Positions 1 through 2,863 of a stretch of 2,863 nucleotides of DNA are shown in pieces. The notes beneath the pieces are model-generated. The model was not told the origin of the DNA, made no database searches, and worked only from the letters and a program-made list of their open reading frames with translations. The DNA lies in the sequence record Y10025.2; one strand, 5' to 3'. Made by a program: the position numbers and the translations under genes. The stretch is from Escherichia virus K5. How positions within the stretch are numbered: position 1 is the first letter of the stretch; each line of letters begins with the position of its first letter.

Positions 1-98
1 GATCACCTGTGAATAAGTTTCTAGAAGTTCTGGCAGGTCTTATTGGCCTGCTTGTCTCTGCTAAGAAGAAACAAGAAGAGAAGGAGGCACCAAAGTGA
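1..98 (+). CDS. 3' end of an upstream gene, truncated by the window start (codons in phase with position 3); visible C-terminus ...SPVNKFLEVLAGLIGLLVSAKKKQEEKEAPK*
   Basis: Only frame open from the window edge (frame 1 stops at 10..12, frame 2 at 14..16 and 62..64). Ends at TGA 96..98. Hydrophobic stretch followed by a Lys/Glu-rich tail. Function not assignable from 31 codons. Confidence 0.4.
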   Translation, partial: SPVNKFLEVLAGLIGLLVSAKKKQEEKEAPK

Positions 99-232
99 AG
101 CGAATCATGTTAGTGACCAACCCTTCTGATTGGTTCGCTGACCACTTCCGGGTGTCAGCAGGCGTTACCAGAGAAAGCAATGGTGAAACCTCTGAGGCCG
201 ACGCTGACGGCAGTTTACGAGGTAGACGATAA
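95..232 (+). CDS. Hypothetical small protein, 45 aa, GTG start (VKRIMLVTNPSDWFADHFRVSAGVTRESNGETSEADADGSLRGRR)
   Basis: Perfect Shine-Dalgarno AAGGAGG at 81..87, 7 nt before GTG 95. GTG 95..97 overlaps the upstream stop TGA 96..98 (GTGA), an arrangement typical of translational coupling. Stop TAA 230..232. Not on the supplied ORF track; no homology recognised. Confidence 0.3.
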   Translation: MKRIMLVTNPSDWFADHFRVSAGVTRESNGETSEADADGSLRGRR

Positions 233-344
233 AGTCTGCTTCAGTAAGCCTGATGCTACAAAATTAGGTTTGTATATTCTCTCGCTAGAACGCGGATATA
301 ATTAATACATAGCTTTATGTATCAGTGTCTTACGATTTACTGGA

Positions 345-367
345 CACTATAGACGAGATACAGGTAG
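345..367 (+). promoter_or_regulatory. SP6-type single-subunit phage RNA polymerase promoter, predicted +1 at G362
   Basis: ATTTACTGGACACTATAGACGAG matches the SP6 promoter ATTTAGGTGACACTATAGAAGAG at 19 of 23 positions, with the core GACACTATAGA fully conserved. It sits in an AT-rich non-coding spacer 76 nt upstream of the tailspike ATG, and is the only such motif in the window. Confidence 0.8.
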
Positions 368-426: not shown

Positions 427-432
427 TAGGAG
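427..432 (+). promoter_or_regulatory. Ribosome-binding site of the tailspike gene
   Basis: TAGGAG at 427..432, 5 nt before ATG 438. Confidence 0.6.
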
Positions 433-437
433 TTAGC

Positions 438-2336
438 ATGGCTAAATTAACCAAACCTAAGACTGAAGGAATCTTGCATAAAGGACAATCTTTGTATGAG
501 TACCTTGATGCGAGAGTTTTAACATCAAAGCCGTTTGGTGCTGCAGGTGACGCCACTACTGATGATACGGAGGTTATAGCTGCTTCACTAAACTCTCAAA
601 AAGCTGTCACAATCTCAGACGGTGTATTCTCTAGCTCTGGTATTAATAGTAATTACTGTAACTTAGACGGTAGGGGTAGTGGTGTGCTAAGTCACCGTTC
701 CAGTACAGGTAACTACTTAGTATTTAACAATCCACGTACAGGTCGCTTAAGTAATATTACGGTAGAAAGTAATAAGGCGACTGATACAACTCAGGGACAG
801 CAGGTATCTCTTGCTGGTGGAAGTGATGTTACTGTAAGTGACGTTAACTTCTCAAACGTTAAAGGTACTGGTTTCAGTTTAATCGCATACCCTAATGATG
901 CGCCACCTGATGGACTTATGATTAAAGGCATTCGAGGTAGCTATTCCGGCTATGCTACTAATAAGGCAGCCGGATGCGTACTTGCTGACTCCTCAGTTAA
1001 CTCCCTCATAGATAACGTCATTGCTAAGAACTACCCTCAGTTCGGAGCAGTAGAGTTGAAAGGTACAGCCAGTTACAACATAGTCAGTAATGTTATAGGG
1101 GCAGATTGCCAGCATGTAACTTACAACGGCACTGAAGGGCCAATAGCCCCTTCTAATAACCTTATCAAGGGGGTGATGGCTAATAACCCTAAGTATGCAG
1201 CGGTTGTTGCAGGCAAAGGAAGTACGAACTTAATCTCAGACGTGCTCGTAGATTACTCAACTTCTGATGCTAGGCAGGCTCATGGTGTTACCGTAGAAGG
1301 GTCTGATAACGTCATAAATAATGTGCTTATGTCAGGATGTGATGGTACTAACTCTTTAGGACAAAGGCAGACTGCTACAATTGCACGCTTTATAGGTACA
1401 GCTAATAACAACTATGCGTCTGTATTTCCTAGCTACAGTGCTACAGGTGTTATTACTTTCGAATCCGGCTCTACCCGTAACTTCGTAGAGGTAAAGCACC
1501 CTGGCAGGAGAAACGACCTTCTCAGTTCTGCTAGTACTATTGACGGTGCAGCTACTATTGACGGCACTAGTAATAGTAACGTAGTGCACGCACCTGCCTT
1601 AGGGCAGTACATAGGTAGTATGTCAGGTAGGTTCGAATGGCGGATTAAGTCCATGTCACTCCCTTCAGGCGTTCTTACTTCTGCTGATAAGTACAGAATG
1701 CTTGGGGATGGTGCTGTATCATTAGCTGTAGGTGGGGGTACTTCTTCTCAAGTTCGCCTATTTACTTCTGATGGTACTTCTCGGACAGTGTCCCTCACCA
1801 ACGGTAACGTGCGTCTTTCTACCAGTAGCACAGGCTATTTGCAGTTAGGTGCTGATGCAATGACCCCAGATAGTACTGGTACATACGCATTAGGTTCCGC
1901 CAGTCGAGCATGGTCTGGCGGTTTTACTCAAGCAGCATTCACTGTTACCTCAGATGCTCGGTGTAAAACAGAACCTCTTACTATCTCAGATGCCTTACTG
2001 GATGCTTGGTCTGAAGTTGACTTTGTGCAGTTTCAGTATTTGGATCGTGTTGAGGAGAAGGGTGCAGACTCAGCTAGATGGCACTTCGGTATCATCGCTC
2101 AGCGAGCTAAGGAGGCTTTCGAACGTCACGGTATAGATGCACATCGCTATGGCTTCTTGTGCTTCGACAGTTGGGATGATGTATACGAGGAAGATGCCAA
2201 TGGCTCTCGTAAACTGATTACACCAGCAGGTTCCCGCTACGGTATTCGTTACGAGGAAGTACTGATATTAGAGGCTGCGTTGATGCGGAGGACTATTAAG
2301 CGTATGCAGGAAGCACTAGCTGCCCTTCCTAAGTAA
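438..2336 (+). CDS. kflA: Tailspike protein, capsular-polysaccharide depolymerase (K5 heparosan lyase KflA-like), 632 aa, with C-terminal auto-cleaving chaperone module
   Basis: Complete 632-aa ORF with RBS and dedicated phage promoter. Residues 31-50 KPFGAAGDATTDDTEVIAAS are the N-terminal signature of right-handed parallel beta-helix depolymerases (pectate-lyase-like tailspikes). A Ser/Thr/Gly-rich stalk precedes a C-terminal segment matching the endosialidase/T5-fibre chaperone family. The gene symbol is from memory of K5 lyase, not from a search. Confidence 0.9.
   Translation: MAKLTKPKTEGILHKGQSLYEYLDARVLTSKPFGAAGDATTDDTEVIAASLNSQKAVTISDGVFSSSGINSNYCNLDGRGSGVLSHRSSTGNYLVFNNPRTGRLSNITVESNKATDTTQGQQVSLAGGSDVTVSDVNFSNVKGTGFSLIAYPNDAPPDGLMIKGIRGSYSGYATNKAAGCVLADSSVNSLIDNVIAKNYPQFGAVELKGTASYNIVSNVIGADCQHVTYNGTEGPIAPSNNLIKGVMANNPKYAAVVAGKGSTNLISDVLVDYSTSDARQAHGVTVEGSDNVINNVLMSGCDGTNSLGQRQTATIARFIGTANNNYASVFPSYSATGVITFESGSTRNFVEVKHPGRRNDLLSSASTIDGAATIDGTSNSNVVHAPALGQYIGSMSGRFEWRIKSMSLPSGVLTSADKYRMLGDGAVSLAVGGGTSSQVRLFTSDGTSRTVSLTNGNVRLSTSSTGYLQLGADAMTPDSTGTYALGSASRAWSGGFTQAAFTVTSDARCKTEPLTISDALLDAWSEVDFVQFQYLDRVEEKGADSARWHFGIIAQRAKEAFERHGIDAHRYGFLCFDSWDDVYEEDANGSRKLITPAGSRYGIRYEEVLILEAALMRRTIKRMQEALAALPK
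1533..1568. repeat. In-frame imperfect 18-bp tandem duplication inside the tailspike stalk
   Basis: agtactattgacggtgca (1533..1550) followed by gctactattgacggcact (1551..1568); the core tactattgacgg recurs exactly 18 nt apart (1535..1546 and 1553..1564), encoding STIDGA/ATIDGT. Confidence 0.6.
1953..2333 (+). other. C-terminal intramolecular chaperone / autoproteolysis domain (peptidase S74-like) within the tailspike; predicted cleavage between Ser505 (1950..1952) and Asp506
   Basis: Motif S-D-A-R-C-K-T-E-P then LDAW, HFGIIAQ, a conserved Cys and a C-terminal helix EAALMRRTIKRMQEALAAL, the pattern I recall from the K1F endosialidase chaperone domain. Placement at the extreme C-terminus after a triple-beta-helix-like stalk fits. 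Confidence 0.65.
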
Positions 2337-2341
2337 GCAAC

Positions 2342-2366
2342 AGGCAGTGCGTAAGCACTGCTTTTC
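2342..2366 (+). terminator. Intergenic stem-loop with GNRA tetraloop and U-tract: candidate partial terminator or RNA-processing/stability hairpin
   Basis: Perfect 7-bp stem GCAGTGC (2344..2350) / GCACTGC (2355..2361) around loop GTAA, extendable by A-U and G-U pairs at 2342..2343, followed by TTTT (2362..2365). Lies 6 nt after the tailspike stop in the 85-nt spacer 2337..2421. Confidence 0.55.
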
Positions 2367-2410: not shown

Positions 2411-2417
2411 AAGGAGG
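2411..2417 (+). promoter_or_regulatory. Ribosome-binding site of the downstream tail gene
   Basis: AAGGAGG at 2411..2417, 4 nt before ATG 2422. Confidence 0.7.
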
Positions 2418-2421
2418 TTAC

Positions 2422-2863
2422 ATGCTACAAAGATTAAGCACCAAGTTGATACAGTATAATGGTGAGAAATTACATACATTAATAGAGCCTTTACTTGAAG
2501 AGGTTAATCCCATTATCCGTATACCAGAAGATTACCCTTCGCTGTATGCGGTTGGTGAGTACCTTACTACTGTAAGCTATGATAACCAAGCAGTAGTAGT
2601 TGAAGTGGCAGCTGGTACTTACAGAGAAACTAAGTCACTACATGAAGTATTTGGAACTAAGTTTGGTAACGGTCGCATACAGATAGTTGGTAAAGGTGTA
2701 GATGTCACTACCTTTGAGTTCTTGAAATGTGATGGAATATATGCAGGACATGGTACTTGTTTTGGTCATGCACCACAGTATCCTGTAAGTGGCGGTGACA
2801 TCCATCCTATCTTTAAGAATTGCACACTTAGTGGTATTAACCGAGATGATGCCCTAGATGATC
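2422..2863 (+). CDS. Second tail-protein gene, 5' portion only (147 codons, continues past the window end); likely an alternative receptor-binding protein of unknown specificity
   Basis: Strong RBS, ATG start, no stop through the window end (MLQRLSTKLIQYNGEKLHTLIEPLLEEVNPIIRIPEDYPSLYAVGEYLTTVSYDNQAVVVEVAAGTYRETK...). No phage promoter of its own, so probably co-transcribed from the promoter at 345..367. Function inferred from position only; no catalytic motif recognised. Confidence 0.75.
   Translation, partial: MLQRLSTKLIQYNGEKLHTLIEPLLEEVNPIIRIPEDYPSLYAVGEYLTTVSYDNQAVVVEVAAGTYRETKSLHEVFGTKFGNGRIQIVGKGVDVTTFEFLKCDGIYAGHGTCFGHAPQYPVSGGDIHPIFKNCTLSGINRDDALDD

Follow-up and report, generated by a model that had tools for sequence, protein, structure and literature searches.

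The closest described system to the locus analysed here is KflA, the capsule-degrading tailspike of coliphage K5. Two reviews describe KflA as cleaving the alpha-1,4 bond of the K5 polysaccharide as a lyase, by beta-elimination (PMC5380687; PMC7885116). The beta-eliminative cleavage of heparosan by KflA is credited in reviews to Clarke 2000 and Thompson 2010 (PMC5380687; PMC7885116; PMC3594737), and according to the reviews the A232 assay on heparosan and the formation of halos were in substance published earlier for KflA itself. The fold is reported to be trimeric, with a single-stranded right-handed beta-helix and, after it, an intertwined C-terminal domain. KflA is also presented as the first known case of a tailspike in which a single-stranded beta-helix is combined with a lyase site resembling that of bacterial glycosaminoglycan-degrading enzymes (PMC3594737). 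A tabulation of masses gives 67 kDa for the KflA of phage K5A; for the lyase of phage K1-5 (ORF46), which is 99 per cent identical, it lists 67 kDa, and 52 kDa once matured (PMC5380687). Escherichia coli K5 also has a chromosomal or prophage K5 lyase, ElmA, which is reported to share the substrate and lyase activity of KflA (PMC3594737). We rely on this literature for both the chemistry of the lyase and its trimeric fold; the enzymology reaches us second-hand through reviews, and the fold through the published description of 2X3H, a crystal structure of identical sequence.

Other tailspikes resemble KflA only in part. Endosialidase NF (endoNF; 3GW6) and phi29 gp12 (3GUD) carry a Peptidase_S74 domain homologous to that of KflA, with Ser and Lys positions that align with it, and we take the chaperone domains of both to have the same role as that of KflA, namely trimer folding followed by self-cleavage. 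The catalytic domains, in contrast, are unrelated to KflA: that of endosialidase NF is a sialidase beta-propeller, and that of phi29 gp12 is a teichoic-acid-degrading beta-helix.

We compared these systems with a stretch of DNA 2,863 nucleotides long, referred to below as the window. Its gene order is the end of a holin gene, a spanin gene, a putative promoter, kflA, a probable terminator, and a second tailspike gene (Table 1). The kflA gene thus occupies the same slot as in an SP6/K1-5-like podovirus, as the first of two tailspike genes and after the lysis genes.

Table 1. Features of the window, with the evidence for each. The promoter, terminator, adapter-peptide and cleavage-site rows are predictions.
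Feature	Position	Strand	Evidence
End of gene-44 homologue (holin), last four codons and stop, cut by window start	2..16	+	Translates as ITCE*, the same as the C-terminus of K1-5 gp44
Gene-45 homologue, Rz-like o-spanin lipoprotein, broken into ORFs 95..232 and 180..305	95..305	+	K1-5 alignment
ATTTACTGGACACTATAGACGAG, 23 bases, resembling an SP6/K1-5-type phage RNA polymerase promoter	335..357	+	K1-5 conservation; shuffle test
Ribosome-binding site of kflA, AGGAG, five bases before ATG	428..432	+	Sequence; phage LL11 has an annotated ribosome-binding site at the corresponding position
kflA, encoding the precursor of the K5 capsule (heparosan) lyase tailspike	438..2336	+	ORF; exact match to O09496 / CAA71133.2
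N-terminal ~30 residues, candidate virion-adapter attachment peptide	438..527	+	Comparison with K1E and with 9VVR/P0016; adapter role from review
Residues 1-505, predicted mature tailspike, with the beta-helix lyase domain and after it the Ser/Thr/Gly-rich intertwined C-terminal part	438..1952	+	Extent of 2X3H; calculated mass; fold from the literature
FGAAGDATTDDT motif, residues 33-44, start of the catalytic module	534..569	+	Read from sequence; conserved core common to 9VVR begins here
S505-D-A-R-C-K510, putative self-cleavage site with Ser/Lys pair	1950..1967	+	Alignment to 3GUD and 3GW6
C-terminal intramolecular chaperone (Peptidase_S74), residues 506-632, predicted to be removed after trimer assembly	1953..2333	+	PF13884; PDB sequence matches
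Probable terminator: 9-bp stem with a GUAA loop, then TTTT	2342..2365	+	RNA fold; phage LL11 annotation
Ribosome-binding site of orf523, AAGGAGG	2411-2417	+	Sequence
orf523, first 147 codons, cut by window end	2422..2863	+	100 per cent identical to AF322018; AF322018 1-1572 continues it

The kflA gene and its source

The open reading frame (ORF) at 438..2336 (+) runs from ATG to TAA and encodes 632 amino acids. Since the next-longest ORF in any frame of the window encodes only 77, a frame of this length is far beyond chance. An exact-sequence look-up found its product to be the same in every residue as UniProt O09496 / GenBank CAA71133.2, an entry labelled "Tail spike protein; Depolymerase, capsule K5-specific" from Escherichia virus K5 (GenBank record Y10025). 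Among all PDB chain sequences, chain A of 2X3H ("K5 lyase") was found to be 100 per cent identical to residues 1-505; after its expression tag, this chain starts at M1 and stops exactly at S505. The product was also matched over its full length by phrog_14895 (tail spike).

The original prediction had proposed that the gene product is KflA, a tailspike with lyase activity on K5 heparosan, and had given 2X3H as its structure. It was right on both counts. Its argument that a length of 632 residues fits KflA was also sound, given a calculated mass of 66.9 kDa against the 67 kDa tabulated. We found no evidence that contradicts the identity of the protein, and with an exact match over the full length it cannot reasonably be refuted. 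We place the probability that this ORF is kflA of coliphage K5 (K5A), encoding the heparosan lyase tailspike, at about 98 per cent. This is a rediscovery, as the protein had previously been characterised and crystallised.

One alternative shares the function and differs in origin: the gene could encode the K5 lyase (gp46) of phage K1-5, which has dual specificity, or that of another K1-5-like Vectrevirus. Positions 1-2433 of the window are about 98 per cent identical (97-98 per cent) to K1-5 and some thirty other Vectrevirus genomes. These phages encode a lyase of equal length with 99 per cent protein identity (AAG59821 in K1-5), and they have the same lysis genes, promoter, and terminator. 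One source even labels the organism of 2X3H as 'Vectrevirus K15'. However, the sequence of 2X3H equals that of the window exactly and differs from K1-5 gp46, which is identical to our product at 624 of 632 residues; the remaining eight are substitutions relative to a protein that matches the K5 entry O09496 throughout. In addition, the likeness to K1-5-like genomes breaks off at about 2433-2444, just beyond the start codon of the next gene. From 2422 to 2863 the window is 100 per cent identical to AF322018 ('Coliphage K5 orf523'), whereas K1-5 and the other Vectrevirus genomes have an endosialidase or another tailspike in this place. KflA of phage K5 has the same neighbour, orf523, as the gene in the window. 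The eight substitutions and the different downstream gene led us to reject K1-5 as the source, and we consider such an origin very improbable. The distinction between K5 and K1-5 in any case concerns source and not function.

We therefore refer to the gene as kflA of coliphage K5 in what follows. The window has GATC at both of its ends (1-4 and 2860-2863), which fits a cloned Sau3AI/MboI-type fragment from an older database record rather than a genome assembly. A megablast search of 5,426 complete E. coli genomes found no ElmA-like chromosomal copy with at least 85 per cent DNA identity to kflA.

Domain layout and maturation of KflA

The N-terminus of KflA differs from the rest of the protein in its relatives. 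A truncated 12-kDa ORF of phage K1E has sequence in common with KflA only at residues 1 to ~45, mainly MAKLTKPKT.G.LH. A tailspike of 843 amino acids from T7-like coliphages (PDB 9VVR; QZI79749, vB_EcoP-101120B1-2) is nearly identical to KflA over residues 31-631, with a score of 1229.6 bits. This protein and a second relative of the same length (P0016) diverge from KflA before residue 31 and have Phage_T7_tail and Tail_spike_N domains instead. The N-terminal ~240 residues of the 843-residue tailspike thus correspond to a T7 gp17-type tail-attachment domain plus Tail_spike_N, in contrast to the 30-residue adapter peptide of KflA. The KflA-type lyase module (window 528-2333), catalytic and chaperone parts together, is a clear case of the same module carried on a different virion architecture. 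Adapter binding by a short N-terminal peptide is described in a review citing Leiman 2007 (PMC5380687), and we infer that the N-terminal peptide of KflA docks to the adapter in this way.

The original prediction had taken three features together to define a trimeric capsule-degrading tailspike: a motif near the N-terminus, a long Ser/Thr/Gly-rich stalk, and a C-terminal chaperone module. The FGAAGD-TDDT motif is indeed present at residues 33-44 and resembles the start of a Pectate_lyase_3-type beta-helix. Alone, however, it does not define a capsule-degrading tailspike. The Pfam beta-helix and pectate-lyase models (Pectate_lyase_3, Beta_helix) gave no score on KflA at E <= 0.01, and Peptidase_S74 was the sole match. 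The domain is too divergent for the Pfam models, and membership of these families is not supported by the sequence. The stalk was likewise borne out only in part. A stretch enriched in Ser, Thr, and Gly does exist at residues 361-505, where their summed fraction is 0.38-0.47, compared to 0.29 for the whole protein and 0.06-0.20 for the C-terminal module, but the enrichment is only moderate; according to reviews, this region forms a triple-stranded beta-helix or a beta-prism behind the main beta-helix of KflA rather than a loose stalk.

The third feature, the chaperone module, was recovered clearly. Pfam Peptidase_S74 (PF13884) matched residues 505-565 with an E-value of 1.5e-14 and a score of 54.5 bits, compared to a cut-off (gathering score) of 22. 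PDB matches of the C-terminal module included 3GUD (E 1.4e-23) and 3GW6 (E 9.8e-22), as well as 7Y5S, 6EU4, and 4UW8. In the alignments to the first two, S505 is matched by the residue with which the released phi29 gp12 domain begins (3GUD, SDERHK) and by the Ala of a non-cleaving endoNF construct (3GW6, TANGERK), and K510 is matched by a Lys in both. We take S505 and K510 to be the catalytic pair, as in the work on endoNF. The calculated mass of residues 1-505 is 52.2 kDa. Together, the alignment of S505 and K510, the end of the 2X3H chain at S505, and the calculated masses, set beside the tabulated 67 kDa and the 52 kDa of the mature K1-5 lyase, support a maturation route in which residues 506-632 would aid the folding of the trimer, followed by self-cleavage after S505.

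Residues E206, K208, and Y229, which may be involved in catalysis by KflA, are present in the 632-residue sequence. The residues of the catalytic site are necessarily there, because the sequence equals that of the crystallised enzyme. We give practically no credence to a generic beta-helix tailspike that is a hydrolase (glycosidase) or a mere binder of surface polysaccharide, although most beta-helix tailspikes are hydrolases and the catalytic domain is not matched by any model of a lyase family. The sequence is that of a protein for which beta-eliminating lyase activity on K5 polysaccharide is described and a catalytic site has been proposed (PMC5380687; PMC7885116; PMC3594737).

For the lyase tailspike KflA we propose the following course. 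The 66.9-kDa precursor would be produced by late transcription from the SP6-type phage promoter just upstream, and three chains would co-fold under the guidance of the Peptidase_S74 domain (residues 506-632). Self-cleavage by the chaperone domain after S505 would then yield the mature 52-kDa trimer, which the short N-terminal peptide would anchor on the tail adapter. From this position, the right-handed beta-helix domain would bind the capsule and cleave the alpha-1,4 GlcNAc-GlcA bond by beta-elimination to give unsaturated uronate ends, and this cleavage would open a path for the phage across the capsule to the outer membrane. The model takes the identity of the protein, the layout of its domains, where the cleavage site lies, and the genomic surroundings from the computations made here, and the chemistry and trimeric fold from the literature; the roles of promoter, terminator, and adapter we infer.

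As a specific lyase for heparosan and unsulfated heparan sulfate, KflA is a tool and an anti-capsule enzyme, which was established earlier for this exact sequence. In this respect our result adds only confirmation, in that a known tailspike could be recognised from the raw sequence.

Genes and signals flanking kflA

Both lysis genes upstream of kflA have counterparts in K1-5 that belong to known families. K1-5 gp44 matches phrog_4712 (holin, E 2.8e-27), and K1-5 gp45 matches phrog_8971 (Rz-like spanin, E 1.7e-38). Relative to K1-5, the o-spanin gene in the window is frameshifted by a single extra C in the CC at 117-118, and the window has a further extra C at ~90 and an extra base at ~361. The upstream flank differs by such single-base insertions from all related phages: the extra C at ~90 and the one at ~117 are missing from 74 of 74 related phage records, which have 259 bases where the window has 261. 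Deleting one C at 117-118 yields a protein of 69 amino acids that is 100 per cent identical to K1-5 gp45 and has a lipoprotein-type signal ending in ...LTTSGC. Because all seventy-four related phages lack it, the extra C at ~117 is probably a sequencing error in an older deposited cloned fragment, which is the simplest explanation. The public K5 fragment would then carry an error in its spanin gene, a point of small practical value. If the extra C is real, the o-spanin would be a disrupted lysis gene.

About 80 bases 5' of kflA, at 335-357, lies ATTTACTGGACACTATAGACGAG, which we take to be an SP6/K1-5-type phage RNA polymerase promoter. A single base separates it from its counterpart in K1-5, and none of 200 shuffles produced a match. 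A promoter is also annotated at the equivalent position of the K1E record X78310. Scans of the window for sigma-70 promoters and intrinsic terminators gave no more matches than expected by chance.

Downstream of kflA, the stem-loop at 2342-2365 is probably its transcription terminator. The predicted structure has a folding energy of -15.4 kcal/mol (z -3.27), and none of 200 shuffles was as stable. Phage LL11 has an annotated terminator at the equivalent position. The consensus terminator scan flagged the kflA hairpin on the minus strand only. Tailspike genes are swapped between phages at a boundary after kflA, with K1-5-like similarity ending at ~2433-2444.

The second tailspike gene, orf523

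Sequence comparison of the 523-residue product of orf523 with Pfam, PHROG, and the PDB gave no match; a weak PDB hit to an acyl-CoA dehydrogenase (E 9e-4) was regarded as spurious. A tblastn search against 50,697 phage records returned only its own entry. Compared with the K1-5 endosialidase, which occupies the same slot, there is no meaningful similarity beyond the first few residues (M-L/I-Q-R-L). We found ten relatives in 5.8 billion proteins. One of these (P0001) is a 99 per cent identical copy, and the other nine have 48-66 per cent identity over ~94 per cent of the length; one of the ten is an E. coli "hypothetical protein". Some relatives have other N-terminal attachment domains, including P22 Head_binding, Tail_spike_N, and a tail-collar fibre domain. 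In a small number of uncultured phages and of prophages in E. coli, the orf523 module is fused to attachment domains of P22 type, T7/CBA120 type, and tail-collar type.

An AlphaFold model of orf523, built on the alignment of its relatives, predicts a long parallel beta-helix (pLDDT 85.9, pTM 0.83). Fold matches of the model include the tail appendage of phage Andhra, phi29 gp12, CBA120 TSP1, and the P22 tailspike, along with beta-helix carbohydrate enzymes (AlgE epimerases, GH87, GH28, and PL6), with all of the best matches at low TM-scores of 0.13-0.51. We predict with confidence that orf523 encodes a second tailspike with a beta-helix fold. A depolymerase tailspike is its most likely identity, and we see an even chance that it is a functional one, with a substrate that nobody has named. 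This second tailspike of phage K5 has very few relatives and is so far uncharacterised; if it does act as a depolymerase, orf523 would give phage K5 a second host range.
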